A stretch of 64,000 nucleotides of DNA from Bacteroidales bacterium. Its GTDB lineage: Bacteria; Bacteroidota; Bacteroidia; Bacteroidales; JALOCA01. The notes below the pieces were generated by a model. It was not told the DNA's origin. It worked only from the letters and a program-made list of their open reading frames with translations, and did no database searches. Below, piece by piece: positions 4,292-35,310 of this stretch. Location: contig CAXXDR010000002.1 of assembly GCA_963665885.2 (NCBI GenBank), forward strand, positions 1,186,910 to 1,250,909. Reading direction: 5' to 3'. Within the stretch, counting starts at the first letter, position 1. Each line of letters starts with the position of its first letter. Made by a program: the position numbers and the translations under genes.

Positions 4292-4399
4292 AGCGATAGA
4301 TTTTTATGGGTTAAATCCAAACCGCTTAGGGCTTGGAAAATGGAAAATGATATAATAATTTAAGAACAGAAAAATACTCGTCAGCAATCAAAATTCAAC

Positions 4400-4597
4400 T
4401 CATCAGTTACCAGTTAAAAATTCATCAGTGATCAGTTAAAAACTCATCAGTGATCAGTTTTAAATTCATCAGGATCTTTTAATGAATTCATCAGGATCTT
4501 TTGAAGAACTTATCAGGATCTTTTGAAGAATTCGTCAGGATCTTTTGAAGAATTCATCAGGATCATTTGAAGAACTCCTCAATGATCGGGAAAAATT
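4400..4597. repeat. Tandem array B: 9 units of 22 bp, in two sub-families (TCATCAGTGATCAGTTAAAA-like x3, then TCATCAGGATCTTTTGAAGAAT-like x5-6)
   Basis: The TCATCAG anchor recurs at 4400, 4422, 4444, 4466, 4488, 4510, 4532, 4554 and 4576, an exact 22-bp spacing. The array starts 109 bp upstream of the minus-strand start codon at 4291. Confidence 0.9.
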
Positions 4598-5247: not shown

Positions 5248-8200
5248 CTAATAAATCACGGTAATTGTTCCGGTACTTTTAAAATCGTTGCCAGGGCGTG
5301 TACTCCCGTTTTCAAAAAGAAGCTCTTTGATGATCCAAAAATAAGTCCCCTCCGGAACTCTTTGCCCTTTAAAGGTTCCATCCCAGCTTTCGGCAGGTTG
5401 TCCGTCCTGAATTTTATCCGATTCCCAGAGCAGATTATCCCATCGGTTGTAGATGGCTATATGATATTTCAAAATTCCATGTCCTTTGGGGGTGAACTTC
5501 TGATCTTCGGGATTGCCGCTACTGAATTTTAGCGCATTGGGAATGTAAAGCCGGTAGAAGAATAAATTGAAAACAACCGAACTTGTATCGTAACACCCGT
5601 ATTGATTGATTGCTTTTAATCTGATCAGGTAATTTCCGGTGGAATTAAACGTAGCTACAGGATTTTCCACGGTTGAAGTATCGCCATTACCAAAGTCCCA
5701 TTCATAGCGATCGGCAAAAGTTGTTTTGTTGGTCAGTTGCAGCGTGGCAGGCAAACCGTTGATATTGGTATTGGCAGACGAATAATTTAAAGTAAACTTA
5801 CTTGCCGGTTGATGGAAAACGCGAACCACGGAAACTGCCGTGTCGCGGCATCCGTTATTCCATTCCGATATCAGGGTAACATTGAAATCGCCAGCCGATG
5901 GATAAGTATGCTCAGGGTTCGACGACCAGGGAGCGCCGTCGCCGAAATTCCAGAGATGATAGGTTCCGGCATCGCCTTCCATGGTAACGGTAAGCGGTTC
6001 ACAACCTTCAACCGAATTCAGTATGGCGGCTGTTGGGTTTATTTTTACAAAAATGGTTTTACTGATGGAATCGCTACAACCCAGCAACTGACTGGTACCG
6101 GCGAGCCATATGGTGTGCCAGCCGGGGAATTGAAAAACATGGGTAGGATTGCTTTGATTGGAAAAAGTAGAATCGCCGAAATTCCAACGGATAAACGACA
6201 ATTGTTCGGATAAGTTGGTGAATTGAATTTCCTCGCCAATACAAACGGAATCGGAAGGCGTGGAAAAATTAATTACGGGCAGGTTCGAAACGTGAATCAA
6301 GGTTGAAACCGTGTCTTTGCTACAGGTGTCGTATCCCGAAACCAATAACCTTGCGCGGTAAACTCCCGATGAAGTGTAGGTATATGTTGGATTCATTTCA
6401 TGGCTCACGCCTCCGTCTCCGAATTCCCAGTCGTAACGGTAGCCTCCCTGCGAGCCGTCGCCACGGAAATGGACAGTATGCGGAGGGCAGCCCATGTTAT
6501 TGTCATAGTTGATGAAAGCCTTGGAGAAATTAGGATAAACAGTAATGGAATCTGTAATACTGTCGCGTCCGCAACCGTTAATCGTTTTTAATAAAATATA
6601 ATACGTTACGGCATCACTGTTTTCATTATAGAAAACATGTTCAAAAATTTTCGACGAAATGGTATCCACCGGAGTGTTATCGCCAAACGACCAGATATTA
6701 TAAACCGGAAGTCCTCTCGAAGTATTGGAAATTCTCAAACGAAGAGGCGAACAACCAATGCGGGTATTAGGCATGAACCGGGCTACGGGCATGGTGCGTA
6801 CTTCCACGGGCAACGATTCGCTGAGCACTCCGCAGTTAATAATCAAATCAATAGTGATATGGTAGGTTGTATCGGCAATTACACCCTGATAATAGGTGAT
6901 GGTGGTGTCGGAAAACGAATATCTTGAGGTAATAATGCTTCCGTTTCCAAAATTCCAGCGATAGCTAACTTGATTGTTATACATGGAATGATCGAAAAGA
7001 ATACGTACATCTACCGGACCGCATTGGCTTGGCGGATCATAGGATATTGTAAAAAAAGGTTGCGGAGGCGGAAAAATCACGTGAATGGTCTTTTCGATGG
7101 AATCAACACACCCATAGCGGGAACTTACAATAAGCAGCACCCTGTATTCTCCCGTATCGGCATAAACGTGAAACGGATTGGGAAGGCTGGAAGTGCTGTC
7201 GTCGCCGAAATTCCATGAATAGCTGTACCCTCCGGTGGTGGTGTTAACAAACTGTTTGTTTATTCCCACACAAAAAGTATCGGCAACAAAATCAGGAATC
7301 GGGTAGGGGTCTACTGTGATGTTGATATAATCGAAATTAAAACAATGGGTGGCTGTGTCTGTAACTTTAAGTGTAATAATAAATGTTCCCGCTCCTGAGA
7401 TGCCGGGGTCAAACGTTCCAAGGATATTATCGGTAATTCCGGAACCGCTCCACCAGGGTTCGTTGGAATAGGTTGCTCCGAGTTCCGAAAGGTTGATGGG
7501 CTCATCGCTGATGCACATTCCCCGGTCGTTTCCTGCAAAAACTTCAGGTAATGGTTTCACAATAATATAAATGCTGTCGCGTGACTCGCATGCTCCATAG
7601 CCGCGTATGTAAAGGCATTTAAAAACGCCGACATACGAAGTGTTAACCCAACCACTCGAACTGACAATGCTGCCAAACCATGAGCCGTCGGTTGGGGTTG
7701 CCCGTAAACGAAACGAAGGTTCGTTGCGGCAAATGCTTGTATCCCCATTTTGTAATGTAATGGGAACATAGGAAATGATGGAAATGGAATCCATAAGCGT
7801 TACCGTATCGCAGTCGTTGGCGGCTTTTAATATAACCCGGAAAGTCCCGGATTGGGTATATAAAATGGAGTCAGGATGAGCCAAAAGGCTTGAATCGGGG
7901 GAAGCGCCTTCAAATTTCCAGTGATAGAAATGGAATGGACTTCCGTTTTCTTCATAGCTTACCTGGGGTGTGTAATAATATGGGGCACAGCGCCGGTTGG
8001 GAGGATGGGCAAGAGTTGCCGTGGGTTTGTTGGCAACATTTATCGTAAAAGTTGTGTCATCCGTCTGTATGCAATTATTTTCCACTCTTAAGGTTACCTG
8101 GTATCCCGAAGCCAGGTACGTGTCGAAGCTGAGGGTTGGTTCTGCTGAGTGTTCGTTGGTTGGGCTGATAAAATGCCAGCCTTGTGCCGGCGTTACCGTC

Positions 8201-9534
8201 CAGGTATAACGAAGACTGCCACCCGTGGAATGATTGATAAACGTAACTTCTTTGGAAATGCAATTATTAACCGACTGAGGCGTGGCATCCGCATAGGGCA
8301 GACTGTCGATACGAACAGGCCAGATCAACGTATCGCTGCCACAGTAACTCATGTTGATTAACATCAAATCATAAACTCCTTTGGCAGAATAGGTTTGTGG
8401 CGGAGGTACAGATCCGCTAAAGGTATGGCCATTTCCGAAATCCCAATAGTACGTCGAACCCGGGCTGCAACCATCCCCGTATCCGGTAGTGGACAGATTT
8501 GTAAACTGTATTTCATCGCCAATGCAGCCTTTAGCCTGAGCGGTATCTATCATCGCTTTGCCTTTGGCGTATACCGGGGCGGTATAATGTTCTGTAAGTG
8601 AAGTTCCGCAAGTATTTGTTGGTTCTAATCTTACGGTGAATTGACTGCCAGGCAAATTGCAGGAAGAAGTTAGATACGTGTGACTGATGATGCTGTCGTT
8701 ATTTACGACGGAATCATGATTCCACAATACCTCGGTTCCGTCGCCAAATTTCCACCAATATTTTGTTCCTGGCGAGTTGTCGTCAATGCCCGAAACCCGG
8801 AAACGGTAAGTTACAGGGGCACACTGTGCCTGATAAGTACCTATGGTATCGAAAGTTCCCATGGGTTGCGACTCGTTGACTATCCAATAGGTAGTTTTTC
8901 CTTCGCAGCCATAGATGTCGGTAGTGGCAAGCCCGAGACTAAATACACCCAGTCTATGATACGTATGCTGAACATTGGTAAAATGTGCCGATAATCCTGT
9001 AGAAACCACACCATCGCCCCAGTTTATGGAGAAACTGTTAGGTACCAGACATGACGTATCCTGAGTTATATTACCGACGGTAACGGTGAAATCGGGATTT
9101 TCTGGCGTGGGATGATTTTCGCAGTTGCTGAATGTGAGCGGATCGGATAATAACGGAACAGGTCTGCCTCTCACATTGACGAATTTAATTTGCGAGCCTT
9201 GCTGTATGTTGGTAAACGTGGTATCGGTAACGGTTAACATCACGTCTTTGGATTGCAGGGTACAACCGAAAACATCAAAAATATGGGTGGGATTCTTTTC
9301 GGAAGAGTGTGGAGTGTTATCGTTAAAATTCCAGTCAAAAATATATTTAGCGCTGTCGCCACCACTCACCAGAGCGGTGAATTGAACAGAATTGCCCGAA
9401 CAGGAACTGTCGGGAGAAAAGGTAAAATTAACATTAAGCTGAGCCGATGAGCGGATTGATAAAAAAATAATAAACATTATCATCCACCATGAACCCAACC
9501 GTTTCATTTGCATTAAACTCCTCCATACTTCCAC
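5248..9534 (-). CDS. Large PKD-repeat surface protein with a gliding-motility-associated C-terminal domain (T9SS type B sorting domain)
   Basis: The 1428-aa ORF has more than 10 repeats of the W.FGDG..S...NP.H.Y...G.Y.V.L type (PKD). The C-terminus YIPNALKF...YHIAIYNRWDNLLWES...WDGTFKGQRVPEGTYFWII...GTITVIY matches the type B CTD pattern. The true start is more likely M10 (9507), immediately before the signal peptide MKRLGSWWMIMFIIFLSIRSSAQ. Confidence 0.85.
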   Translation of the reverse strand: MEVWRSLMQMKRLGSWWMIMFIIFLSIRSSAQLNVNFTFSPDSSCSGNSVQFTALVSGGDSAKYIFDWNFNDNTPHSSEKNPTHIFDVFGCTLQSKDVMLTVTDTTFTNIQQGSQIKFVNVRGRPVPLLSDPLTFSNCENHPTPENPDFTVTVGNITQDTSCLVPNSFSINWGDGVVSTGLSAHFTNVQHTYHRLGVFSLGLATTDIYGCEGKTTYWIVNESQPMGTFDTIGTYQAQCAPVTYRFRVSGIDDNSPGTKYWWKFGDGTEVLWNHDSVVNNDSIISHTYLTSSCNLPGSQFTVRLEPTNTCGTSLTEHYTAPVYAKGKAMIDTAQAKGCIGDEIQFTNLSTTGYGDGCSPGSTYYWDFGNGHTFSGSVPPPQTYSAKGVYDLMLINMSYCGSDTLIWPVRIDSLPYADATPQSVNNCISKEVTFINHSTGGSLRYTWTVTPAQGWHFISPTNEHSAEPTLSFDTYLASGYQVTLRVENNCIQTDDTTFTINVANKPTATLAHPPNRRCAPYYYTPQVSYEENGSPFHFYHWKFEGASPDSSLLAHPDSILYTQSGTFRVILKAANDCDTVTLMDSISIISYVPITLQNGDTSICRNEPSFRLRATPTDGSWFGSIVSSSGWVNTSYVGVFKCLYIRGYGACESRDSIYIIVKPLPEVFAGNDRGMCISDEPINLSELGATYSNEPWWSGSGITDNILGTFDPGISGAGTFIITLKVTDTATHCFNFDYINITVDPYPIPDFVADTFCVGINKQFVNTTTGGYSYSWNFGDDSTSSLPNPFHVYADTGEYRVLLIVSSRYGCVDSIEKTIHVIFPPPQPFFTISYDPPSQCGPVDVRILFDHSMYNNQVSYRWNFGNGSIITSRYSFSDTTITYYQGVIADTTYHITIDLIINCGVLSESLPVEVRTMPVARFMPNTRIGCSPLRLRISNTSRGLPVYNIWSFGDNTPVDTISSKIFEHVFYNENSDAVTYYILLKTINGCGRDSITDSITVYPNFSKAFINYDNNMGCPPHTVHFRGDGSQGGYRYDWEFGDGGVSHEMNPTYTYTSSGVYRARLLVSGYDTCSKDTVSTLIHVSNLPVINFSTPSDSVCIGEEIQFTNLSEQLSFIRWNFGDSTFSNQSNPTHVFQFPGWHTIWLAGTSQLLGCSDSISKTIFVKINPTAAILNSVEGCEPLTVTMEGDAGTYHLWNFGDGAPWSSNPEHTYPSAGDFNVTLISEWNNGCRDTAVSVVRVFHQPASKFTLNYSSANTNINGLPATLQLTNKTTFADRYEWDFGNGDTSTVENPVATFNSTGNYLIRLKAINQYGCYDTSSVVFNLFFYRLYIPNALKFSSGNPEDQKFTPKGHGILKYHIAIYNRWDNLLWESDKIQDGQPAESWDGTFKGQRVPEGTYFWIIKELLFENGSTRPGNDFKSTGTITVIY

Positions 9535-18456: not shown

Positions 18457-20409
18457 TCATTTAGTTTTAATGATAAAAGGTTTTTCGCCCAGTTCTTTTT
18501 GAGCCTGCACGCATTTCTTAAAGTCGGGCCAATCGGAAGCATCATAAACCCGTTTGCCGAAGACCGAGGTCTGGTTTATTTTTAATGTTTTCCCCTGTTG
18601 TTGCCAGGCGAAGTTGCCCGAATTATACGTCCCTTTGATTTCCGTAGATTTGAAAGGGCTGGTTGCAACGGCTCCGTCGGGGAGGGTAATGCTTTCTTCC
18701 AGTTCCACCAGGCGTGAAGTGCGGTCGCGGAAACCGTAGTTCCGTTGGTCAATATCCGTGTTCCACCATAGATACGACATGGCTGAGGCAAAAAGCTGGG
18801 TAGTGGTGATGGGTTTAACGATAAGTTCATTGTTACCGGCGAGTGCATATCCCGGAATGGTAAAGTCGGCGGTGATTTTTATGGGACCAGACATGTAATC
18901 GTAGGGATCGCCAAAATCAATATTCGAAAGAACGATCGAAGGGAAGATGCGGAGGAACTCCTTTTCTATGCCCATTTCCCAATCGCTTTTGAAGTTGCGC
19001 GTGAAAAAGCCCCTGACTGAGCCATCGGATTGTCCTTCGGCGGTAAGTGTAAATGAACCGGTCAGGGTTCCATCGCCGGCAAGCGTCGATTGGGTATTGA
19101 TACGGAAATAATGATCTTCGGGAGGAGAGATGGGAGTAACTTTTAAGTCGGCGCCTTCGGGAACACCCATAAGATAGTTCTGCTGTTGTTCGGCGCTCGA
19201 CCACAGTTCGCGGAGAAAAGGAACCCAGGTAGGATCGAGCAACTGGTATTGTCCGTTACGACGTTTGACCACGGTAACGCTGTGATTAAACTGGTCGGCG
19301 GGGATATAATCAATGCGGGAACCAGCCATCGTCATAGCAGGATAGGCCTTGAAGCCGGCGGCGCGCAACATAGCGATAAGCATGCTTGCTTTGTCCTTGC
19401 AAACGCCACAACGGTCGGTAAAGTTCATCTTACAATTGTGCAGGGTGTATCCTTCGCCTTTGCCCATGGTGATACCGGAATAGCGCATGTTGTCGGCTAC
19501 CCAATGGGTGAGCAGGGAGATGCTGTCGAGTTCGGTGCGGGCATCTTTAACCAGTTCCGATACATTTTCCCTGACTTCGGGCGTGGGATCGAAACTGTGA
19601 TAATCTTCGTTAACGTTATAAAACCAAAGCGATTTGGCTTTCCAGTCGGGACTGGTGGAAAGCAGCAGCTTGGGAGCCACATCATCCCATGCCACCATGT
19701 TGGGTTCAGCCTTCAGGGGCAGGATGTTTGTTGCCGCAAAGGCATACAGGTTTTTATCGCCAAGAAAGAGAACTTTGGAAGTGCAGGTACCATTATAAAA
19801 TTCGTATTGTATGGTTTTATCTTTGGGAACATATACCTGATACGATTTACAAAGGATGGGATCGGAGCTATAGAAAGGGACAATATCGTAGAAATGTCCG
19901 CGCATGGGTGGGATGTACTGGTCGTCGTCGCCATCCTGGAGCAGGGCATAGGTAAAGCCTTTTTTAAAGATAAATACTTCCACTGCATCGCCGGGTTCGA
20001 GCCGTCCCACTTCTATCATCTTTTCGCGGGCGCCCCAATAGATGGCGCGTGCGGGAGCGGGATAATCCATAACAGTGGAAACAGGAATATTTTGAATGCT
20101 ACCGTCGTGGCGATAGACTACTACTTTTTGTATTTCGACAAAAGCCGACAACGGGTCGTAGCCATATTTCACCGTCTTCATCCGTAAGGCTCCCTGGGGA
20201 GTGAGTATTTTGGTAAGCTGATGGAGGGTGTAATACGAAAGGCCGCTTTCCTGAACATCCACGCGGGTGCTGTCGAAAAGCAGCAGCAGGTTATCGTTGG
20301 GATAGTCCGAAGCATTGCCCGAGCGATGAATAAGATCCTGAACGGGAATTGCCTGAAGACTTAAGACCCCGATAATGCAGATAATAAAAAGGGAAAATTT
20401 TCTAAACAT
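18457..20409 (-). CDS. DUF3857 + transglutaminase-like cysteine-protease core + DUF3858 secreted protein
   Basis: The 650-aa ORF has a signal peptide. The core motif is DRCGVCKDKASMLIAMLRAAGFKAYPAMT, with downstream FNHSV and LLDPTW segments consistent with a Cys-His-Asp triad. Confidence 0.8.
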   Translation of the reverse strand: MFRKFSLFIICIIGVLSLQAIPVQDLIHRSGNASDYPNDNLLLLFDSTRVDVQESGLSYYTLHQLTKILTPQGALRMKTVKYGYDPLSAFVEIQKVVVYRHDGSIQNIPVSTVMDYPAPARAIYWGAREKMIEVGRLEPGDAVEVFIFKKGFTYALLQDGDDDQYIPPMRGHFYDIVPFYSSDPILCKSYQVYVPKDKTIQYEFYNGTCTSKVLFLGDKNLYAFAATNILPLKAEPNMVAWDDVAPKLLLSTSPDWKAKSLWFYNVNEDYHSFDPTPEVRENVSELVKDARTELDSISLLTHWVADNMRYSGITMGKGEGYTLHNCKMNFTDRCGVCKDKASMLIAMLRAAGFKAYPAMTMAGSRIDYIPADQFNHSVTVVKRRNGQYQLLDPTWVPFLRELWSSAEQQQNYLMGVPEGADLKVTPISPPEDHYFRINTQSTLAGDGTLTGSFTLTAEGQSDGSVRGFFTRNFKSDWEMGIEKEFLRIFPSIVLSNIDFGDPYDYMSGPIKITADFTIPGYALAGNNELIVKPITTTQLFASAMSYLWWNTDIDQRNYGFRDRTSRLVELEESITLPDGAVATSPFKSTEIKGTYNSGNFAWQQQGKTLKINQTSVFGKRVYDASDWPDFKKCVQAQKELGEKPFIIKTK

Positions 20410-20610
20410 TTTTTAGATATTTGATTTGAACGGTAAAAATAGGAGTTTTTCAAAAACAAGCAAGAAAGAAATTGACGATTAAAGGCTGTTTACGGGAATT
20501 CACTATCGGGAAATAGGAATGAAAAGATGAATAGATTTCAAGGTATTTTATGAAAAAATAAAATAGATATTAAATAAACCATCAAATTTGATAAAAAAAT
20601 GAAACAGCAT

Positions 20611-20904
20611 TTTCATAATTGGAAATAGGGTTTCCATAATTGGAAGTAGCGCTTCCATAATTGGAAATAGAGTTTCCATAATTGGAAATAGCATTTCCAT
20701 AATTGGAAATAGAGTTTCCATAATTAGAAATATGGTTTCCATAATTGGAAATAGGGTTTCCCTAATGTGAAATAGAACTTCCCTAATGTGAAGTAGAGTT
20801 TCCCTAATGTGAAGTAGAGTTTCCCTAATGTGAAATAGAACTTCCCTAATATGAAGTAGAGTTTCCCTAATATGAAGTAGGACTTCCCTAATGTGAAGCA
20901 GCGT
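20611..20904. repeat. Tandem array C: 14 units of exactly 21 bp (294 bp), as 7 units TTCCATAATTGGAAATAGRGT followed by 7 units TTCCCTAATGTGAARTAGARY
   Basis: Units start at 20611, 20632, 20653 and so on to 20884, with no indel. The ORF-track entries 20548..20742 and 20724..20942 are heptad artefacts of this repeat. Confidence 0.95.
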
Positions 20905-21137
20905 TTCAATTTAAGTAAGCCCAAAAAAATAATGCAGATCAAGAGTTGAAAATAAGAGATATAAATGGTAAGCTCCGAGGTTCTCCGTGATTCCTCTGTG
21001 GTTCTCCGTGTAATTTAAAACATTATAACACAGAATTTCACAGAGGAATCACCGAGTTGCACAGAGAAGGCTTCAACCGTTGATTTGCTTAAATAACTAT
21101 TTGCTATGGATTAAAAGATTTTAATCCGAATGTATTT
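20903..21137. repeat. Conserved module E, copy 1, containing long hairpin H2 built from CACAGAG/CTCTGTG words and a second small hairpin
   Basis: By eye it is roughly 85-90 percent identical to 35041-35251. Hairpin arms are CTCCGTGATTCCTCTGTG and CACAGAGGAATCACCGAG, with loop ...AAAACATTATA.... There is a second hairpin GGATTAAAAGATTTTAATCC. Confidence 0.85.
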
Positions 21138-21271
21138 ATGGGACAATAGCGAAAGTTTTTAACTATCTATTTGCATAAATAATTTTTTTATATTTGTAAA
21201 CGAAAAACAATAGCTAATTACGAAATAAGCGGCATAATGGGGGTATATAATCGTTACAGCACATTTAAAAA

Positions 21272-22426
21272 ATGACGACACGAGCAACTGAAAATATAAT
21301 TTCTCAGATAAATGTGAATGTATTCTTTAAGGAATTTACATTTAGCAAGAATGATTTTGTTGAATTAGATTCAAATCAGAAACTTGAATTTGCTGATAAT
21401 GTGGTATGGCTTGATGATATTTTTTTCATTTATCAGATAAAAGACAGAGCATTATCTGATAGTGATGACAAAAAGTGGTTTGATAATAAAGTCCTAAAAA
21501 AGGGAGTTAAGCAAATTAAGAATACACTTAAATATTTGGAGAATTATTCAGGTATTACTATAACGAATGAAAAGGGGCATAAGATAAATATTTCAGAGGC
21601 AAAGAGAACCACTCCAAGAAAAATTATTATTTACACACCAAGTGATTCTTTTCCTAATGCAAAAAGGTTTGTCAAGTTTTATGATAGCAGCCAAATAGGT
21701 CTAATTCATCTTTTTCATTCAGAAGACTATTATTGGATTTGTAAATATTTATTGACACCAGCAGAAGTTGAAGAATATTTGAATTTCAGAGAATCTTTTT
21801 ATACTAACCAAAAGCTAGTTTTAAACCATTTTCCAGAGCAATATATATTAGCACACTTTTTAGAAACGCTTGATAATTATACTATAGTTCCTAGATATAT
21901 TGATAATCTCAAGATTATTGACAAGGAAAATATTGATTTTGACATTTCTTTTCTCATTGATAATTTTACTAACAATATTAAATTAATAAATCACAAAACA
22001 GAATATTATCCAATTATTAAGGAAATTGCTAAGCTCAACAGAAGTGAGATGGCAGAGTTTAAGAAGCGTTTTGTTCGTTGTTTAGAAATGTGCAAAAAAA
22101 AAGATATTGTATTACCATATAGAATTTATATTCCTAGGACAGATTGTGGTTTTGTGTTTATTCCGTTATTCAAAGAAAAAGTTGCATTTTGGAAAACCGC
22201 ATTGAATAATTTTACGTTAGCTCAAAAGTATGACCAAAAAGCGGGGAAATGTGTTGGAGTAATCATATTTGAAATGCAAGTTGACAACACTAATTACTTT
22301 GATATTTATTGGGAATATGCTGAGTTTCCATGGGAATTTGACTCTGGATTGGATTCTCTACTTAAAGCTGATTTTCCATTTAGAGAGGCAAAAATGAAAA
22401 GAATTGATAACAGATATAAAAATTAA
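21272..22426 (+). CDS. Orphan hypothetical protein in markedly AT-rich DNA, with a possible N-terminal Mrr/PD-(D/E)xK-like nuclease motif
   Basis: The 384-aa ORF has no signal peptide. The segment EFADNVVWLDDIFFIYQIKDR resembles the D...D-x-h-x-h-Q-x-K core of Mrr-type nucleases; this is a weak similarity and not a database match. A hand count of one 60-nt line (21301-21360) gives 25 percent GC, against 47 percent for one line inside sprA. Confidence 0.6.
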   Translation: MTTRATENIISQINVNVFFKEFTFSKNDFVELDSNQKLEFADNVVWLDDIFFIYQIKDRALSDSDDKKWFDNKVLKKGVKQIKNTLKYLENYSGITITNEKGHKINISEAKRTTPRKIIIYTPSDSFPNAKRFVKFYDSSQIGLIHLFHSEDYYWICKYLLTPAEVEEYLNFRESFYTNQKLVLNHFPEQYILAHFLETLDNYTIVPRYIDNLKIIDKENIDFDISFLIDNFTNNIKLINHKTEYYPIIKEIAKLNRSEMAEFKKRFVRCLEMCKKKDIVLPYRIYIPRTDCGFVFIPLFKEKVAFWKTALNNFTLAQKYDQKAGKCVGVIIFEMQVDNTNYFDIYWEYAEFPWEFDSGLDSLLKADFPFREAKMKRIDNRYKN

Positions 22427-22709
22427 AAAATAAACGTGCTGTAACAAGGGCTCATATGCAATGCTAGTTTCAACGGTTTTGCAAGCTCAGTTCTCGTAGG
22501 CAAGGTTTGTCTCAGTTGATACAGAGTAGCCACGCAATCCTGCGCTATGCATCGCGCAAACGTTAGCCACCAATAGCAAAGCATTACAAAAGCAATTAAA
22601 TAAATCTTCTGGTTTTGAAATTCCAAATAAACTTCTTACACTTGCATTTGAATTATTAATTTTCAGGTTGATCCTTATTTTTAACAACTTATATAAGAAA
22701 AACATTATT

Positions 22710-23303
22710 ATGAAGTATCGAATTCATCTATTCATCGTATTAGCATCACTTATTTCACAAACATTACAATCGCAAAATTATGACTTCGAGCAGATACCCC
22801 AATGGGTGAAAACAATTGAAATACCTGAAAAAATTCCAATTCCAAAGAATGAGGTAATGTCTGGATTTTATACAACACTTATGGATTATCAGATAAATTT
22901 GGAAGAGAATGCAGCCTTTAATCATGAAGTTAGGAATATTATATCGTTCAGCGGAATTACAAATGCTTCCCAAATTTCAATTTCATTTGATACTTCTTAT
23001 CAGAAGCTGAAAATACATCATCTGTTTATCTGGAGAAAAGGGAATAAAATAGATCGAACAAAAGATCTGAGTTTTGAAATAATGAAAAATGAGTTGAAAC
23101 TTGAGCAAGGAATATACACTGGACAAATAATTTTATACGACATATTAAATGATATCAGGAAGGATGATCTGATTGATTTTGCGTATACAATAGTTGGGAA
23201 CAATCCGATTTTTGATGATGGAAAATATCTTTTTATCCCTTTAGAAACAATTAATCCGATAGATTTAGTTTCACTTCGTGTTTTGTATCCGAAAGAAAAG
23301 GAT
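22710..23303 (+). pseudogene. 5' fragment of a DUF3857/transglutaminase-family gene interrupted by an IS5-family element
   Basis: The signal peptide MKYRIHLFIVLASLISQTLQSQ starts at 22710. The frame runs into the IS end, which supplies the TAA at 23304-23306. Confidence 0.8.
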
Positions 23304-24591
23304 TAAGACCGTTGCAAAATAAAGCGAGAGTGAATTTTCTTGTTTTTTTACTGAAGATATTTAGTTTTATACCATTAAAATGTTTTTTTTGCCGTTTTTT
23401 ATTCTCCTTATCTCTATAATATTGCTGTAAATGAGGAATTTTCTCCTCATTTTTAGCATTGGGACATAATGATCCCAGGTGAACGGTATAAGTTGTATGC
23501 AATAGCTTCCATCAGATGTTGGGTATGCATTTTTGACAACCCCACATAACGGGCTACTCCTCCACCAAACCATCGTTTTATTGACCCAAATGTCCGTTCT
23601 ACTTTATACCGGGTTTTACTCACTATTTTGTTGAATTGTATTTCTCTTTCTGTTAACTTTCTATTTTTGGCTGCTTTATTCATTATATGATTACGAAGTC
23701 GTTTCTGCTGTAATATTGTATCGTTCTTTTTACTTTTATATCCTTTGTCTGCTTTTACCCAAGTCCTTTCCGTTAATTCACATGTATCCAATACCTGCTC
23801 CAAATTGCTTATTTCATTCACATTAGCCGAGGTGGTAAGTACTCCCAAGATTAACCCATTGACATCAGTAATCGTATGTTTTTTATATCCAAACCGGAGC
23901 TTCCCGGCTTTTTTTACCCATCTGCCTTCGGAATCAACTCCTGGCTGGGTCTTCTTTATCAATTTAAATTGTGAGGCTTCTTTTTCTCTTTCTTCCTCCT
24001 TTGGCTCTTGCTGACGATCTTCTACTATTTCATATTCCGTTTTCCCCTTTGGCTTTCTTGGACTATCGGTAATACTCGCATCTACAATGACTCCTCCCTT
24101 AACCAGTATTTTCTTTTTCTCTAATTGTTTATTCATCGCTTTGAATAATTTTTCGTACACATTCTTTTGGGTAAGTTCGGTACGAAAACGACTGATAACA
24201 CTATGATCGGGACATTTGTCATCTATACTTAATCCTACAAAACGACTGAAGGATATTCTGTCATTTACCTGGTCTTCTACTTCATAATCACTCAAATTAT
24301 ACCAGGTCTCCAAAAGACATATTTTAAAAAGTAATAGCCCTTCATAAGCCGGACGTCCACTTACACTTTCTCCTTTTTGATAGTGCTTATTGATAATATT
24401 GGAAATAAGTCGCCAATCGATCAATGTATTTACCTGATCAAAAAATTCTGTCTTTACTTTCCTTCTTTCTGCTGCTAAATCAGCAAAGCCTATGTGTTTC
24501 TCATTTTTCATGCTACAAATATAACAAATTCATTGTTATAAATAACACTAATCTAATATTTTATACGCATTTTTGCCTTGCAATGGTCTTA
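23304..24591 (-). mobile_element. IS5-family insertion sequence (1288 bp)
   Basis: The terminal IRs are TAAGACCGTTGCAA (23304-23317) and TTGCAATGGTCTTA (24578-24591). It is flanked by GAT (23301-23303) and GAT (24592-24594). It encodes one InsH-like transposase. Confidence 0.85.
23453..24511 (-). CDS. IS5-family (InsH-like, DDE) transposase
   Basis: The 352-aa ORF carries GRPAYEGLLLFKICLLETWYNLSDYEVEDQVNDRISFSRFVGL...CPDHSVISRFR and GGVIVDASITDS, closely paralleling the layout of IS5 InsH. Confidence 0.9.
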   Translation of the reverse strand: MKNEKHIGFADLAAERRKVKTEFFDQVNTLIDWRLISNIINKHYQKGESVSGRPAYEGLLLFKICLLETWYNLSDYEVEDQVNDRISFSRFVGLSIDDKCPDHSVISRFRTELTQKNVYEKLFKAMNKQLEKKKILVKGGVIVDASITDSPRKPKGKTEYEIVEDRQQEPKEEEREKEASQFKLIKKTQPGVDSEGRWVKKAGKLRFGYKKHTITDVNGLILGVLTTSANVNEISNLEQVLDTCELTERTWVKADKGYKSKKNDTILQQKRLRNHIMNKAAKNRKLTEREIQFNKIVSKTRYKVERTFGSIKRWFGGGVARYVGLSKMHTQHLMEAIAYNLYRSPGIIMSQC

Positions 24592-25959
24592 GATTATTCA
24601 TACAGATGTTCAGGCTGCGATAGTCTTATATCAGATATGGAAGTTGACGGTTACCGGCAAATTGAAATACAATATAAAAATGTAAAGGCAATAAAACTTG
24701 AGGATAACATTCCTTCATGGACAATGCCATATAAATACTTTGAATTAAGTAGTTTAAAATCATGGAAGGATGTTAATATGTGGGCACAAAAGGTTTTTGC
24801 CTTAAAAGAACAGCCAGTTCTTGATGACGTTTTCAAAGAAATATTTACGGGAAAAGAAACCAAAGAAGAAAAAATAAATAAGATTATTAATTATGTCCAG
24901 GATGAAATACGGTATATGGGAATTGAGTCAGGCATAGGAAGCATAAAGCCACATTCGCCAGAACAGGTGGTAAAACAGCGCTTTGGCAATTGCAAAGACA
25001 AATCCCTGCTATTAGTTACACTGTTGAAAAAAATAGGTGTGACGGAAGCTTACCCGGCTTTGGTAAATGTTTCTATGAAACACGAAATAGAAAAACTGGG
25101 ACTGAGTAATGAGATTTTTAATCACTGTATCGTCACATTTAAATACAACGATACTTCGTATTGGGTTGACCCAACAATTCCACTGCAAGGCGGAGATTTT
25201 AAAGATTTATCTAATGTTGATTTTGGTAAAGTCCTGGTCATAGGTATGCCATCTGATTCCCTTCAGAATATGTCGCCAAAACAAACGGAAGCATTTACAG
25301 AAATAGTTGATGAATATACGATAAACTCTTTTACGGAACCTGCCCAGTTAAAAATTACTTCTAAAAGAAATGGCTTTGAAGCAGATGACAGAAGGGCTTT
25401 GATTGAATACTTTTCTTCCAGCAAATTATTGGAGCAGACATTAAACGAGTTTAAATTACTATTTCCAAGTGTGAATCAGACTTCTGAACTGGAAGTTAAC
25501 GATGATATAGTTAAGAACATCATTTCATTAACTTATAATTTTGAAATCGATGGTTTATGGCAGGATGGGGACAAAGGAACGAATAAATCGGCCAAAGGCC
25601 TTTGGGTCTTTAAATATGAACCACTGATGTTATATCATGATTTTAATGTATCGTCATGTGAAGATCGACAATATGATTATAAGGTGATTTATCCCATGAA
25701 CCTTGATTATCGTGTGATTTTTCATTTACCTAAGACCGTCATGATTGATGATAGTTATCAATTGTATGATAATGAAGCATTTTATTATGAAGAAAATGTT
25801 GAGCAATTGAGCAGCAATTCGTTCCAGATTCATTATAAGTACAGGACAAAGACAGATTACATTAAAGCCGGTGATTATAAAAAAATGTGTGAGCAAAAAA
25901 ATGCAATATCTAAAAAGCTTCCAACCGTTATTTATTTTCCAACACTACTGATGCGTTAA
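24592..25959 (+). pseudogene. 3' fragment of the same DUF3857/transglutaminase gene; its last codons come from an inserted IS4-family element
   Basis: The frame continues ...DYSYRCSGCDS... and holds the transglutaminase core QRFGNCKDKSLLLVTLLKKIG. The terminal residues TLLMR and the stop are read from the IS4 left end. The first 56 codons of ORF 24424..25959 are IS5-derived read-through. Confidence 0.8.
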
Positions 25960-27252
25960 AATTAATCACAAAATAAATCGTATTGTTCTTTCACATTTTG
26001 ATTGACTTGTACCTCGGTAAGCAGTTCCTTAACTGAAGTTTTATCGAAAGCAGATATTCCCAAAATTTGCATTATTTCGTAAACCGACAAGTTGGTTTTG
26101 AGTGAATGCTTGATATATGCTACAATCAGATAAGTGCAGATAGCCACCCATATATGAATGTTTACTGCATTTTCTGAGTGCCCCCATAATCTTTTGATGG
26201 TGAGATTCTGCTTTATCCATTTGAAAAACACTTCTATTTGCCATCGATTTTTGTATAAACGTGCAACTTCAAGGGCTGATATGTCAAAATTGTTGGTTAA
26301 AAACACGAGCAATAAGGCTTTTTCTTGGTCGTAATATTCAACAAGCCGAAAGTTCTCCGGGTAAAGTTTTTTAGACTTATACCCATTAAGTTTGATGGTT
26401 TTATCACTTCTTAACCCCGATGAGTCATCAATATTGAAGTTTCTTTCGATTTCAATATAATTGAGCGATATTTTTGCTCTGGTTACAAAATATGCCCCTA
26501 CTTTATGGATATTGTACAATGCGAGAAAATCGACATAAGCCTTATCCATCAAATAAATAGCATTAGGGATTGGAATGATCTCATCAAGTGCGTTGCTGTC
26601 ATGGTATTTACCATCGGTAATAAGGATAAAGGTCGGTATGCTTCCCCGCAAATCAAGCAAGGTATGGACTTTTATTGCACCCCGTGAGTATTTTCCATGT
26701 GCCCATTGGAACAACTTGATGCTAAGCGATATCGTCGTCGAATCTAAAGCAAACACATCATTGTCAATATCGATATTGGGGATTGGGGTATCTTGATAAA
26801 GAGGTCTTACCAGTTTTATCAGATACTCTCCAAAATCAGCAAATATGTGCCAATTACGATTTTCATTTGCCCGCGATAAAGTTGATTGTTCAACATGTTG
26901 CTTAATACCCAAATGATAGAGCTTCTTCTTGTGAACTTTCAGACATAAACAAATATCACGTAATGAATTAAGAGAAGTCAGTTGACCAAAGAAAAGTTGT
27001 AAAAACTGGTTCCAACAATTCAAATTTCTGATCCTGTGATCACCATTATACCGATTTACACATTTTTCAAACTCATACCTGTTGACAAATTGTAAAAGCT
27101 GGGCAAATACATACTTACCTGAATTCATAATCATGCACTTAAAAAAGTGCAAAACTACAGGTCAATTCAAATCAAAAAATCAAAGAACGATTATATTTGT
27201 TTTTATATCAATTATTTACAACTAATTTTAAAAAGTTAACGCATCACTAGTG
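25943..27252 (-). mobile_element. IS4-family insertion sequence (~1.31 kb)
   Basis: The terminal IRs are CACTACTGATGCGTTAA (25943-25959) and TTAACGCATCACTAGTG (27236-27252). There is an 8-bp direct duplication TTTTCCAA at 25935-25942 and 27254-27261. Confidence 0.85.
25962..27152 (-). CDS. IS4-family DDE transposase (DUF4372-type N-terminus)
   Basis: The 396-aa ORF reads MNSGKYVFAQLLQFVNRYEFEKCVNRYNGDHRIRNLNCWNQFLQLFFGQL..., then LDSTTISL, YLMDKAYVDF and a YKNRWQIEVFFKWIKQ (YREK-region) motif. Confidence 0.88.
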   Translation of the reverse strand: MHFFKCMIMNSGKYVFAQLLQFVNRYEFEKCVNRYNGDHRIRNLNCWNQFLQLFFGQLTSLNSLRDICLCLKVHKKKLYHLGIKQHVEQSTLSRANENRNWHIFADFGEYLIKLVRPLYQDTPIPNIDIDNDVFALDSTTISLSIKLFQWAHGKYSRGAIKVHTLLDLRGSIPTFILITDGKYHDSNALDEIIPIPNAIYLMDKAYVDFLALYNIHKVGAYFVTRAKISLNYIEIERNFNIDDSSGLRSDKTIKLNGYKSKKLYPENFRLVEYYDQEKALLLVFLTNNFDISALEVARLYKNRWQIEVFFKWIKQNLTIKRLWGHSENAVNIHIWVAICTYLIVAYIKHSLKTNLSVYEIMQILGISAFDKTSVKELLTEVQVNQNVKEQYDLFCD

Positions 27253-28051: not shown

Positions 28052-28145
28052 TTTGATTATTTCGGTGAACCAGCGCCATTGATTTCGGAGTAAACGGCGC
28101 CCACCTAAAGGGTTAGGATTTGTAATGCAGTATTAATCATTTTTT

Positions 28146-28255
28146 AACCTTAGTAGAAAAAATTACACAAGCGAAAAACAACCTTATTCCATTATAATCA
28201 TTAAAATAAGGTAATAAGGTTGTGGGTTATGGTGGTTATTATTTCTACTAAGGTT
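28146..28255. repeat. Nested word-built hairpin H4
   Basis: The outer arms are AACCTTAGTAGAA (28146-28158) and TTCTACTAAGGTT (28243-28255). The inner arms are AACCTTATT and AATAAGGTT. The loop contains CATTATA. Confidence 0.7.
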
Positions 28256-28363
28256 CAAGGATGAAAAATAAGGTTTCCCTTTTTTGTTTACCCGGCTGAA
28301 CGGAAAATGTTTTGCCGTCAGAAATAAATTCTACTAAGGTTCAAGGATGAAAGATAAGGTTTT
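28243..28363 (+). repeat. Direct repeat of a ~35-bp unit, 86 bp apart
   Basis: TTCTACTAAGGTTCAAGGATGAAAAATAAGGTTT at 28243 and TTCTACTAAGGTTCAAGGATGAAAGATAAGGTTT at 28329. The second copy directly abuts the cysK remnant. Confidence 0.8.
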
Positions 28364-28368
28364 CTTTG

Positions 28369-28473
28369 GCGGCAATAGCCAAAAAGCTTCCTGAATTTCT
28401 GGAAAACAGCCGGATTTTAACCTTTGCCTACGATACCGGCGAACGGTATTTGTCGGTGGAAGGATTGTATTAA
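28369..28473 (+). pseudogene. 3'-terminal remnant (35 codons) of a cysteine synthase (CysK/CysM-type PLP enzyme) gene
   Basis: It translates to [34 protein letters not shown]-stop, which fits the conserved CysK C-terminus (...D.GERYLS..L). An in-frame TGA lies immediately upstream, so there is no 5' part. Confidence 0.6.
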
Positions 28474-32054: not shown

Positions 32055-34424
32055 TTAAAATCTAAGATTCACACCTGCCAAAAAGTTAATCCCTGCCTGT
32101 GGAAAATATCCGTCCATTTTCTGATATTTATCTTCGTAATAATAGCGATATACCCAGGCATTGCTTTCGTATTTTTCGCTGAAAAGATTATTTACCATCA
32201 GGTTGAACCCAATCTCTTTGATGAGCCGGGTAGCGATAGCATAATGCAGACGGATGTTATTGACAAAATAGGGATCCAGTTTGCGGTCGTCGCTCGAAGT
32301 ATTGTCAATGTATTGTTTGCCCACGTATTTGCTTTCGTAGCTGAGGCTAAGATTTTTAAAAGGTATAAAAGTAAAAATATTGTTCGCAATCAGGTCGGGC
32401 GAAAGCAAGAGGTCGGTATTGCCGAGCTTGTTTTCCTTTTGTCCGCCAAGATCCCAGTCGTCAACATATTCGGTAAAGTTCTTGATTTTATTTTGACTTA
32501 ACGTGAAGTTTGCCTGCCAGGTCAACCAGTCCTGAATTTTGGCGCTTCCGCTGAATTCAATGCCGGTACGGTAACTTTTCGATACGTTGGTCATGATGGC
32601 GCTGCCCACATCATTGATTTTTCCGGTCAGAACCAGTTGATCGGAATAATCCATGTAATACAGATTTGCACCTACCGAAAGACTGGTCGAGTGGTAGTTG
32701 TAACCCAATTCATAATCATTCAGTATTTCGGGTTTAGGAAGCTTTCCGGGGTCGGCATCTTTAAAATTGTCGCGGTTAGGTTCGCGGTGGGCCACGCCAA
32801 ACGAAAAGTATATATTGTTTTGCTGGTTGATGTCGTAATTGATGCCGGCTTTGGGATTGATGAAATTGTAGCTGTGTTTCTGAGCTAGGTTTTTCCCATC
32901 GTCGTCCAGCCCGTCGATCTTAAAATGAACATAACGGTATTGCAGATCGCCATAAAGATTAAGTTTCGGATTAATCTGGTAATTTATTTTTACAAAGGAA
33001 TTGAAGTCTTTTTTATGGCTGTTGTTATCGTACCAATGATGATAATTATCAGTGTTGTAGGCGAGTTCCGTCCATACCACCTTGCCGTAATGATCGCCGT
33101 CGTACTGGCTGTATGCTCCACCCAGAGTGGTAGTTACTTTTTTCAGTTTATAATCGAGCGAATAGGTAATTCCGTAGAAATCGTTGTCCATCCATTTCTG
33201 GTGGATAAGGTTGGTCTTGCTGATGGTGTCGTTGCCGATAAAAAGCGTATCGAGGCCGAAATCTGCAAATTTGCCGTCAGCTTTATATTGTTCATAATAT
33301 CCTTGTCCTTTGGTATAATGCAGGGCAGCGTTCAGGAATAAATTCGGGTTAATTTCTTTGGAATAAAAAAGCTGGTAATGATCCTGCTGATAGTTGTCGG
33401 TTTCGTTGGGATAGGTAAAGGAATTATAGGTGCGGTTGGTATTCAGCGAGTCGGAAGGCACACCGTTCCAGGCAAGATGTGTACGTTCTTTTCCTGAAAA
33501 GATATTGAGTTTGATCAACGATTTGTTTCCAACATACGTGCCGGAGACGAAGAAAGATTTCAGGTCGGAAGCCGAATGGTCAATATATCCGTCGGAAGTG
33601 ATTTTGGATAAACGTCCGTCGAACGACCAGTGTTTGTTGATAAGCCCGCTGCCAAAGTCAACATTGTTTTTAAACGAATTGAACGATCCGCATGAACTAT
33701 TGATTTCGCCGTAAGGTTCCGCATTTACCTTGCTCGTTTGTATGTTGATGGAAGCGCCGAAGGCGGCGGCTCCGTTGGTGGAAGTGCCTACGCCACGTTG
33801 TATCTGCATATTATCCACCGACGAGCTGATGTCGGGTACATCTACCCAATATACTTCCTGGCTTTCGGCTTCGTTATACGGAATTCCGTTTACCGTAACG
33901 TTGATGCGTGTCATGTCGGTGCCGCGGATGCGCATGCCGGTGTAGCCTATGCCCATTCCGGCGTCGGAAGTGGTAACGACCGAAGGCGTATTTTCCATCA
34001 TATACGGCAAATCCTGACCGAGATTTAGTTGTTTTATCTCCAGCTTTTCGATGTTACGAACCGTTGCCGGCTGTTTGCCATTGACCCTGGTAGCCGAAAT
34101 GATAATTCCTTCTTGCAGAATGGAGCTTTTTACCAGTTCAATCTTTAGCAAAGTGTTTTGTGTTAAATTTACCTGTTGCGAATAATCCTGATAACCCATA
34201 AAGGAAATCTTCAGGGTGTAGATTCCCTTTTTCAGTTTTTTAATGGTAAAGTTTCCGTCGGCATCGCTGAAGCTTGCCATAAATGTGTTTTCGAGCCGGA
34301 CGTTGGCTCCCGGCAAGGCTTCCGACGAATGTTTGTCGGTAATTTTTCCCGTAAGGGTAAATTGTGAAAATGCAGCCCAGGGCAATAAAGCCCACATGGC
34401 AAAGAGTAACAGTTTTTTGTTCAT
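32055..34424 (-). CDS. TonB-dependent receptor with an N-terminal CarboxypepD_reg-like domain; likely an outer-membrane thiamine or thiamine-precursor transporter, given the riboswitch upstream
   Basis: The 789-aa ORF has a signal peptide. FTLTGKITDKHSSEALPGANVRLENT is CarboxypepD_reg-like. There is a plug domain, and the C-terminus ends in an aromatic residue (...AGVNLRF). A TPP riboswitch lies about 55-60 nt upstream. Confidence 0.88.
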   Translation of the reverse strand: MNKKLLLFAMWALLPWAAFSQFTLTGKITDKHSSEALPGANVRLENTFMASFSDADGNFTIKKLKKGIYTLKISFMGYQDYSQQVNLTQNTLLKIELVKSSILQEGIIISATRVNGKQPATVRNIEKLEIKQLNLGQDLPYMMENTPSVVTTSDAGMGIGYTGMRIRGTDMTRINVTVNGIPYNEAESQEVYWVDVPDISSSVDNMQIQRGVGTSTNGAAAFGASINIQTSKVNAEPYGEINSSCGSFNSFKNNVDFGSGLINKHWSFDGRLSKITSDGYIDHSASDLKSFFVSGTYVGNKSLIKLNIFSGKERTHLAWNGVPSDSLNTNRTYNSFTYPNETDNYQQDHYQLFYSKEINPNLFLNAALHYTKGQGYYEQYKADGKFADFGLDTLFIGNDTISKTNLIHQKWMDNDFYGITYSLDYKLKKVTTTLGGAYSQYDGDHYGKVVWTELAYNTDNYHHWYDNNSHKKDFNSFVKINYQINPKLNLYGDLQYRYVHFKIDGLDDDGKNLAQKHSYNFINPKAGINYDINQQNNIYFSFGVAHREPNRDNFKDADPGKLPKPEILNDYELGYNYHSTSLSVGANLYYMDYSDQLVLTGKINDVGSAIMTNVSKSYRTGIEFSGSAKIQDWLTWQANFTLSQNKIKNFTEYVDDWDLGGQKENKLGNTDLLLSPDLIANNIFTFIPFKNLSLSYESKYVGKQYIDNTSSDDRKLDPYFVNNIRLHYAIATRLIKEIGFNLMVNNLFSEKYESNAWVYRYYYEDKYQKMDGYFPQAGINFLAGVNLRF

Positions 34425-34477
34425 TTGATTAAAATTTTAAGTTAAACTTTTAATCAATAGAGGGAAAAAATTCGATA

Positions 34478-34566
34478 GATGCTTGTTATTCCCTTCGCCG
34501 GCATTATCCGGAGCAGGTTCAAAGAGTATGATCTCAGCCCGTTAGTTTAGGGCACCCCTATTGGTA
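34478..34566 (-). promoter_or_regulatory. TPP (THI-box) riboswitch
   Basis: The minus strand reads AGGGGTGCCCTAAACTAACGGGCTGAGATCATACTCTTTGAACCTGCTCCGGATAATGCCGGCGAAGGGAATAAC. This matches the THI-element core: GGGGUGC, GCUGAGA, a pyrimidine-sensor helix reading ACUC where the consensus has ACCC, then UUGAACCUG, CCGGAUAAUGCCGGCGAAGGGA. Confidence 0.9.
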
Positions 34567-34684
34567 ATCTTTTTGCAAAAATAAATAAATATTTTACCTT
34601 ATCTGACGAAAAGATATAATTTTTTTTGAAGGGAAATCATGAATTCAAATCTATAAACGTTTTTTTACACACCCATTTGATGTC

Positions 34685-34975
34685 TCTTTGAATCCATTTT
34701 TAATGATCTTGAATAAATTTAGCCACATCTTGAATGCATTTAGGATGATCTTGAATGGATTTAGCCACATCTTGAATAGATTTTAGATGATCTTGAATAC
34801 ATTTTAGTACATCTTGAATAGATTTAGGTCGATCTTGAATGGATTTAGGCACATCTTGAATAGATTTAGGATGATCTTGAATAGATTTAGGCCGATCTTG
34901 AATGCATTTAGGATGATCTTGAATACGTTTTAGCCCATCTTGAATAGATTTAAGATGATCTTGAAGGGTATAACC
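34685..34975. repeat. Tandem array D: 14 units of 21 bp (~294 bp), consensus ATCTTGAATRSATTTAGGNNN, with alternating unit types (a 42-bp super-period)
   Basis: The TCTTGAA anchor recurs at 34707, 34728, 34749 and so on to 34959 (13 units at exact 21-bp spacing), plus a degenerate first unit at 34685. ORF 34700..35035 is a heptad artefact. The array lies about 120 bp upstream of the riboswitch 5' end. Confidence 0.95.
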
Positions 34976-35040
34976 AAGGAGTGTAAAACAAACTGTGTCA
35001 AAGAGGATAAATAATGAAATTTGACAAAAAAACAAAATAG

Positions 35041-35251
35041 AGTTTCAATTTAGATAAGCCAAAAAATAATGCGGATCGAGAGTTGAAAATAAAAGATATA
35101 AATAGTAAACTCCGTGGTTCTCTATGCAATTAAAATATTATAACACAGAGTTTCGCAGAGAAATCACAGAGTTGCACAGAGAAGGTTTCAACCGTTGATT
35201 TGCATAAATAACTATTTGCTATGGATTGAAAGATATTAATCCGAATATTTT
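35041..35251. repeat. Conserved module E, copy 2
   Basis: It aligns with 20903-21137 from GTTTCAATTTA... through ...GGTTTCAACCGTTGATTTGCATAAATAACTATTTGCTATGGATTGAAAGATATTAATCCGAAT. The 5' arm of the long hairpin is partly deleted in this copy. Confidence 0.85.
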
Positions 35252-35310
35252 TCCGCCCGGAACAAAACGGTTCTGGGTACTCGGAACCGCTCAGCGGGGG
35301 ATTTCAAAAT

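Follow-up and report, generated by a model that had tools for sequence, protein, structure and literature searches.

What is a non-coding module of 210-235 bp that stands twice in one genome, each time in the company of a 21-bp tandem array: a mobile element, an RNA gene or a part of something larger? The locus that raises this question lies in a stretch of 64,000 nucleotides (the window, W) from an uncultured Bacteroidales bacterium (GenBank assembly GCA_963665885.2, contig CAXXDR010000002.1, positions 1,186,910 to 1,250,909), where the module, termed E, occurs as E1 (~20902-21137) and E2 (~35041-35251). We compared the window with related loci (L001-L003 and L086-L096) and with sequencing runs (X1, X3 and X4); related long contigs were reached via cluster members of two flanking proteins, and seven wastewater metatranscriptomes were compared with both loci. 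E is a lineage-specific non-coding module, neither an autonomous or mobile element nor a gene or RNA gene. On balance we consider it probable that E1 is the upstream part of the head of an array of gene cassettes, that E serves there to regulate or insulate the cassette promoter, and that E2 is a paralogue left as debris.

E1 and E2 are ~88% identical over their aligned positions (MAFFT), with a single 22-nt gap that falls inside a long hairpin of CTCYGTG and CACAGAG units, and a repeat finder recovers the two halves of E as gap-free blocks, families D9 (91%) and D15 (90%). A 21-nt core of E is found in two places only, E1 and E2, against an expectation of 0 from shuffled sequence. A preliminary description of this DNA had proposed such a pair, lying in the same order behind a minus-strand gene start and an array; both the pair and the order, with gene starts at 20409 and 34424, are borne out. 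Its picture of E next to a 294-bp array holds in part: a tandem array lies to the left of each copy, but spans ~280-290 bp and not exactly 294, and E1 abuts array 1, whereas a 75-bp gap containing the end of an IS256-family insertion sequence (IS) separates array 2 from E2. At the end of E, the conserved stretch and the small hairpin that had been described are confirmed as well, both nearly invariant in 10 aligned copies. The right boundary that had been drawn for E proves too short at the first locus, where homology with related strains runs 118 bp further, to 21255.

This extension places E1 in its context. E1 forms the left two-thirds of a non-coding block of ~355 bp (20902-21255), here called the head, which is kept in all related strains whose fetched DNA covers the locus. 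Homology reaches 21255 in W, L091, L087, L090, L086, L002a, L003, L002b and L001, and the loci that cover the position (L086/L088/L093/L096, L087, L090 and L091) all carry array 1, E1 and the promoter block beside the DUF3857 gene. Partial copies made of the right arm of the hairpin, the 3' core and the promoter block, without the 5' half of E, also precede cassettes in L001 and inside the cassette array of L002 (L002b).

The block of 118 bp that follows E carries a putative promoter of the Bacteroidota sigma-A type. The motif TTTG-N15-TATATTTG, with TTTG at 21170-21173 and TATATTTG at 21189-21196, is invariant in 9 copies. TAnnTTTG and TTTG are reportedly the -7 and -33 consensus elements of Bacteroidota sigma-A, as described by Bayley and colleagues in 2000. 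The TATATTTG element is the sole TAnnTTTG in 20300-21400 on both strands and lies downstream of E; E itself has no Bacteroidota promoter motif on either strand. The earlier suggestion of a promoter or regulatory cassette thus survives for the position of E1, directly upstream of the putative promoter block at the start of a variable cassette array, but not for E as the carrier of the promoter.

Downstream of the promoter the head ends abruptly. The leader closes with ...AAATAAGCGGCATAATGGGGGTATATAATCG, and between 21253 and 21254, preceded by GTTA/TAAC-like boxes, lies a fixed crossover of the form (G/A)|TT. Here homology ends at one position and the copies continue into unrelated sequence: TTACAG, TTGGGT, TTACCG, TTAGCC, TTAGCG, TTATAT, TTAGTA and TTAGCA. 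In runs X3 and X4 the Logan contigs are interrupted at 21255/21256 and supply one more continuation, and 9 different first cassettes were seen at the junction. By this comparison the crossover 21253/21254 appears attI-like. An empty platform, that is, the promoter block fused directly to the downstream leader, was found in none of four runs.

What follows the junction has the organization of integron cassettes. The open reading frame (ORF) of the window cassette encodes 384 aa without a Pfam family, and its attC site, 130 nt long, starts with GTGCTGTAAC and combines an R'' box CTGTAAC with an R' box GTTAGCC (22562-22568). The R'' region of this cassette and its first 10 nt are reverse complements of each other, and complementarity of 7-10 nt between cassette start and R'' is found in W, L001, L002, L003 and L086 (start/R'' pairs GTTACAGCAC/GTGCTGTAAC in W, GTTAGCA/TGCTAAC in L001, GTTATATGCC/GGCATATAAC in L002 and GTTAGCG/CGCTAAC in L086). 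The five attC sites examined (one each in the window, L001 and L002, and two in L003) measure 114-132 nt; for three of them the fold of the bottom strand gives a 7-bp R box, an unpaired spacer of 3-4 nt and an L stem, and the L boxes stand out of register in a MAFFT alignment of the five. A naive attC finder based on R''/R' complementarity returned ~50 matches per strand but not the true site, since integration leaves a hybrid R'.

The cassettes are discrete, co-oriented and strain-variable, and each has its own attC completed by its 5' end. The orthologous locus L003 illustrates the turnover: the downstream DUF3857 gene is 97.6% identical and the final junction GTTAGCCACCAATAGC is shared, while the cassettes differ, two TIR-domain (TIR_2) cassettes and an ORF-less piece lying between the shared borders. 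Across the related strains the genes of the cassette region include two with TIR_2 and others with SIR2_2/DUF4917, DUF2971, radical SAM and TetR/BcrAD. We count one attC in the window, at least two in both L001 and L003, and at least one clear site in L002 together with further cassette boundaries.

The integrase is missing from the neighbourhood. No Phage_integrase-type domain or tyrosine recombinase occurs in the window ORFs scanned (Pfam) or in the genes called within ±10 kb of 11 related loci (L086-L096), and the non-coding space by the junction is too small for an integrase pseudogene. An adjacent intI, the gene of a tyrosine recombinase with an IntI-specific insertion that a complete integron requires, is absent over that same range. 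IntegronFinder defines loci with at least two attC sites, or with one, and no integron integrase nearby as attC clusters without an integron integrase (CALINs) and single attC sites without one (SALINs), respectively (PMC4889954, PMC9024848; bioRxiv 10.1101/2022.09.11.507474). By these definitions the window is a SALIN and its relatives are CALINs.

The resemblance to an integron platform (attI plus the promoter Pc) lies in the fixed (G/A)|TT insertion point and in a putative upstream promoter that would read into co-oriented cassettes. The cassettes themselves correspond to those of integrons in joining an ORF to an imperfect-palindrome attC (RYYYAAC...GTTRRRY) of the length given above. As in a sedentary chromosomal array, content varies among close strains and includes defence-like genes, with a group II intron reverse transcriptase in some strains, and as in CALINs and SALINs the integrase was not found nearby. 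Unlike an integron platform, the insertion point has no intI beside it in the window or the related loci, and what stands there instead is a minisatellite of 21 bp together with a divergent gene of housekeeping type; the host is a member of the Bacteroidales, and the conserved head partly recurs inside arrays. In Bacteroidetes, complete integrons are reported to be very rare, and integrons to be nearly absent from complete genomes (PMC9024848).

We propose that the last 118 bp of the head would supply the promoter and the attI-like crossover at which cassettes of ORF and attC insert and are exchanged between strains, presumably through an integron integrase whose gene lies elsewhere in the genome and which acts in trans. 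A species-level uncultured Bacteroidales population (landfill, wastewater) has a cassette hotspot that turns over among strains 92-97% identical in the neighbouring gene and combines defence-like cassettes (TIR, SIR2-like, DUF2971) with a conserved non-coding head and no local integrase. Experiments in E. coli led to a proposed route of cassette capture away from intI (bioRxiv 10.1101/2022.09.11.507474). Should an integrase use the junction in trans, this would be a natural example of promoter-proximal capture away from intI, and E with its 118 bp would be a defined sequence by which arrays of this kind could be sought in metagenomes. As regards E, the gain is chiefly one of clarity: the module is an upstream piece of a head, and adds no new mobile element or RNA.

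What E may contribute to the head can be read from its anatomy. An outer inverted repeat of 17 nt, with 5' arm GCAGATCAAGAGTTGAA (20934-20950) and 3' arm TTCAACCGTTGATTTGC (21072-21088), encloses the long hairpin. In the right arm of the hairpin the heptads CACAGAA, CACAGAG, CACCGAG and CACAGAG, at 21029, 21039, 21050 and 21060, are spaced by 10-11 bp and well conserved; the left arm, of CTCYGTG units, varies in length, units being missing in E2 and a mini-hairpin being added in L003, L086, L087 and L090. The 3' core contains the 3' arm of this outer repeat, with the palindrome TCAACCGTTGA (21073-21083) in it, as well as the stretch TAAATAACTATTTGCTATGG and, at 21108-21127, the small hairpin GGATTAAAAGATTTTAATCC. 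This core duplicates the upstream half of the promoter at an offset of ~86 bp and resembles 21153-21193 (family D14). An un-duplicated form is preserved in one contig of an RNA run, which jumps from 21082 to 21169 and so brings TTCAACCGTTGA against the -33 TTTG.

E could accordingly be pictured as supplying three things to the promoter: a strong hairpin with four CACAGAG heptads phased at 10-11 bp, the palindrome TCAACCGTTGA, which in the un-duplicated relative lies directly against the -33 element, and a duplicate of the promoter's upstream half. With these it might offer a regulator a binding platform, keep the divergent gene, the array and the cassette promoter apart as a barrier, or do both. 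Identity among five strains is 94.6% for the 5' part of E, 93% for the 3' core and 85% for the hairpin, whereas third codon positions in the neighbouring gene reach 88%; the higher values are mild evidence of constraint on E. The 5' segment occurs solely in full E copies, all of which adjoin arrays.

The distribution of E is narrow. Exact-pattern scans for the 3' core gave 0 and then 1 contig (L001) in GTDB species genomes, 2 contigs (L002 and L003) in JGI metagenomes and 0 among viral contigs; the promoter-block pattern found L001 alone among GTDB species representatives, and a distant BLAST search with the whole head against plasmids and phages returned nothing. Since the pattern scans match so few contigs, E appears confined to one lineage. 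L001 (JAQVXR010000216.1, 4 kb) is filed in a metagenome-assembled genome of the Desulfitobacteriaceae and is ~90-93% identical to the Bacteroidales locus where aligned; this placement is probably a binning error. Words of the hairpin reach a depth of 172-315 in run X1 over a baseline of 7-13, indicating that hairpin-like repeats are common in the sample of the source run, and full E is present there in just the two known contigs.

E2 is a truncated and probably non-functional paralogue of E1 in a patchwork of IS debris and small repeats. It ends with ...TAATCCGAATAT, short of the promoter block, and has neither an insertion point nor a cassette. Its left edge keeps AAATAGAGTTTC, the consensus of the array-1 unit, so that E2 derives from an E1-like copy. 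The block 34632-35247, which comprises array 2 and E2, is found in the window, L091 and runs X3/X4 only; in L090 and L092-L096 (six loci, four or five distinct contigs) 65 nt of unrelated filler take its place, and neither at this empty site, as seen in L090, nor at the borders of the composite is there a target-site duplication. A proto-unit of array 2 was looked for in the filler and rejected, the local score being 12 where shuffles average 11.2. The closest relative, L091, has an IS110-family element (DEDD_Tnp_IS110 / Transposase_20, 8056-9060) in the right arm of the E2 hairpin, which splits E2. The IS256-family element is intact elsewhere, for example in L086 (8388-9865), where it is bounded by terminal repeats GAGTGTAAAACNAACTGTGTCA and has duplicated 8 bp of its target, ACCTTGAA. 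That array and E move as a unit, as had been suggested, finds no support: the two arrays are unrelated, an IS end lies between array 2 and E2, and the composite has no target-site duplication at its borders.

Several observations weigh against placing E in a cassette-array head in this way. The 3' core of E2 is ~94% identical to that of E1 and co-occurs with an array, which decay does not obviously predict, and the shared order of both full E copies relative to array and minus-strand gene has to be treated as partly coincidental. The promoter is predicted from its motif, whose spacer, at 15 nt, is short. Support for the junction as attI is comparative, with no integrase found, and an attG-type secondary site in the 5' untranslated region of the downstream DUF3857 gene would look identical. 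The palindrome TCAACCGTTGA is altered in three strains, to TTAACCGCTGA, TTAACCATTGA and TTAACTGTTGA, which weakens its interpretation as an operator, and the higher conservation of E is calculated from blocks of ~70 nt and five strains.

Table 1. Coordinates of E, its surroundings and other features of the two loci, in positions of the window
Feature	Position	Strand	Basis or remarks
Array 1	20610-20897	.	TRF 20616-20897, 13.4 copies of 21 bp; family D1
E1 5' segment	20902-20971	+	Alignments, fold; first ~20 nt a degenerate array-1 unit
E1 long hairpin	20972-21069	+	Inverted repeat I4, pattern search, alignment, fold
E1 3' core	21070-21137	+	Nearly invariant in 10 aligned copies
Putative promoter, leader and candidate insertion point	21138-21253	+	Motif scan, alignments; beyond E as first reported
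Gene cassette	21254-22562	+	Starts TTACAGCAC; ORF 21272-22426; attC 22439-22568
TPP (thiamine pyrophosphate) riboswitch	34473-34569	-	Rfam 64 bits, above gathering score; leader of TonB-dependent receptor 32055-34424
Array 2	34688-34965	.	TRF, 13.2 copies of 21 bp, unit TCTTGAATAGATTTAGGATGA
IS256-family (Transposase_mut) left end, truncated, 48 nt	34979-35026	+	Between array 2 and E2
E2	35041-35251	+	E1 paralogue: 5' segment, hairpin with shortened left arm, 3' core and small hairpin
Small dispersed repeat (CCGCCCGGAACAAAACGG...CGCTCAGCGGGG)	35252-35300	.	Right flank of E2

Among the alternatives, the one that survives best, though we hold it to be unlikely, makes E itself integron debris. 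This reading would see in the big imperfect palindrome at 20934-21088 a fossil attC with an R'' decayed to GATCAAG (not RYYYAAC), and in the stretch that runs from G|TTGATTTGC (21079/21080) to 21253 a promoter-bearing cassette without an ORF; the array would be a CALIN that takes its promoter from this first "cassette". It counts against this that canonical attC sites (59-base elements) have spacers of 5-6 nt, and the core-like boxes of E are separated by 1 nt. L002 speaks for such a past: its first cassette has an R'' ATATAAC that is the perfect complement of its start GTTATAT, the same hairpin follows 10 nt on and CAACCGTTGATT / GTTGATT comes ~126 nt later, a normal attC length. The outer stem is also present in the minimum-energy folds of both strands of E1 and the top strand of E2 and is 99% pairable in 8 copies, and the promoter block ends in a mini-palindrome AAATAAC-N13-GTTATAY that resembles R''/R'. 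The fold of L002b, however, leaves the R'' side unpaired with the distal arm, the genuine attC sites of these arrays are of another sequence type (GCTAACA...GTTAGC), and the partial copy in L001 begins inside the right arm and not at G|TT.

For the ORF-less cassette in particular, the last ~33 nt of the junction stand alone in another contig of run X4, and promoter-containing cassettes without an ORF are documented (Tansirichaiya et al. 2019, reviewed in PMC8876359, section 2.4.3). Like these, the block is a short non-coding unit with a putative promoter, found both in first position and embedded in an array (L002b), from where it would drive downstream cassettes. Unlike them, it is not closed by a canonical attC, its left border (candidate 21079/21080) shows no demonstrated G|TT, and E lies upstream of the promoter.

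Two further explanations give the array a part of its own, and we regard each as improbable. According to the first, array and E together are an upstream module of the minus-strand genes (DUF3857, TonB-dependent receptor), with E, taken on the minus strand, as an insulator or terminator-like barrier to transcription coming in and the phased 21-bp array as a binding platform upstream of the promoter of the gene. Both loci do read E, array, promoter and gene on the minus strand, the 5' half of E is confined to array neighbourhoods, and the hairpin is very stable. E2, moreover, lies just downstream of sprA, between the sprA terminator and the receptor promoter, and array 2 and E2 are jointly present or jointly absent in the material seen. 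Yet the receptor gene, its TPP riboswitch and its promoter are intact in the six loci that have neither array 2 nor E2, and the IS end splits array 2 from E2. E is also missing beside three other arrays of the window and in L089, where a different array (2998-3299) sits upstream of the DUF3857 gene with the IS256-family element at its side. A scan for sigma-70 and terminator consensus sequences, ill-suited to Bacteroidota promoters, revealed no terminator-like site at either E region.

The second, which we consider comparably doubtful, would make the 355-bp head a portable cassette-capture head of this lineage: attI and promoter without a neighbouring integrase, copied to new sites (L001, the L002 array and, abortively, E2), with the hairpin a domesticated attC. 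The neighbouring 21-bp array would be a component of this apparatus, for instance a phased platform to which the recombinase or a regulator binds.

That E encodes a small structured RNA, as had also been suggested, is very improbable. Its folds do beat shuffled sequences (z-scores -4.9 and -6.5), and on the plus strand one-sided changes in the outer stem mostly retain G-U pairs. Against this, compensatory changes number 0 among 63 predicted pairs in 10 copies, a result that shuffled alignments match, and the left arm of the hairpin is freely deleted or replaced between copies. E holds no convincing ORF, and neither a promoter motif nor a terminator was found in it; Rfam gives no match at the gathering threshold and, up to E = 10, just spurious miRNA hairpins. 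Short contigs from four wastewater RNA-seq runs span the promoter block and, within E, the 3' half, but they are thin, of low depth and without strand direction and may include DNA, and three further runs have nothing over E.

That E is a miniature inverted-repeat transposable element (MITE) or the conserved end of an IS is hardly credible: two dispersed copies, IS elements close by (the IS256-family end and the IS110-family insertion in E2 of L091), hairpin words abundant in the source run and a short, non-coding, hairpin-forming build are what a MITE would show, but inspection of the ends finds no terminal inverted repeats, there is neither a target-site duplication nor a clean empty site, source-run contigs hold just two full copies, none of the IS ends known from the window and the fetched loci is similar, and collections of plasmids, phages and viruses yield nothing, with one contig among GTDB species representatives. 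E likewise recalls the repetitive extragenic palindromic sequences (REP) and bacterial interspersed mosaic elements (BIME) of enterobacteria in being an imperfect palindrome among small intergenic repeats (the repeat flanking E2, 86-bp repeats and the arrays) and an IS110-family target in L091; unlike them, full E has two copies per genome, is much longer (210-235 bp) and is tied to one locus type.

Some observations concern the surroundings of the cassette region. A group II intron reverse transcriptase (RVT_1 and GIIM) lies at the distal end of the region in L092 (16355-17477) and L094 (16224-17474); group IIC-attC introns are known in integrons. Repeats of ~86 bp (…TCTACTAAGGTTCAAGGATGAAAAATAAGGTTT…) stand by an M16 peptidase gene, with two copies in the window (28131-28370), four in L002 (2200-2600) and others in L001 (1656-1838), and in both L001 and L002 the cassette region ends on its right side at this repeat block. 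Two ISs with DDE transposases occupy 23306-24591 and 25962-27152 of the window; the first splits a plus-strand DUF3857/transglutaminase gene (22711-23305 and 24592-25959) that is intact in L003.

Array 1 lies between the start of the minus-strand DUF3857/transglutaminase gene and E1 and consists of ~13.5 copies in two sub-families, TTCCATAATTGGAAATAGNGT and then TTCCCTAATGTGAAGTAGAGT; its copy number is 13-20 across related strains. Array 2 is variable as well, by 21 and 63 nt in run X4. The two arrays are 200-263 bp from the starts of their minus-strand genes (DUF3857/transglutaminase and TonB-dependent receptor), and their units, like those of all arrays compared, show no significant relatedness except for the two sub-families of array 1. 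Three more arrays of 21/22 bp, at 174-456, 2401-2491 and 4397-4587, have no E alongside. The 21/22-bp arrays are in general intergenic, ~190-290 bp long, mutually unrelated and typically placed 100-260 bp upstream of genes that encode secreted or outer-membrane proteins, and most of their units have a short internal palindrome by eye. No arrays were found upstream of the orthologues of the receptor gene in 80 other Bacteroidota; the arrays are lineage-specific. An IS256-family element lies at or by the end of a 21-bp array in three contexts: window 34979-35026, L086 8388-9865 and L089 from 3299.

By the receptor leader there is a -7 motif, TATTTTTG, at ~34583. The repeat on the right flank of E2 (CCGCCCGGAACAAARCGG...CTCGG...CGCTCA) also occurs in strains without E2, and twice in L001. 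Elsewhere in the window, a minus-strand ORF of 3847 aa (44887-56430) contains internal repeats of ~1377 bp and ~700 bp (families D3, D6 and D8).

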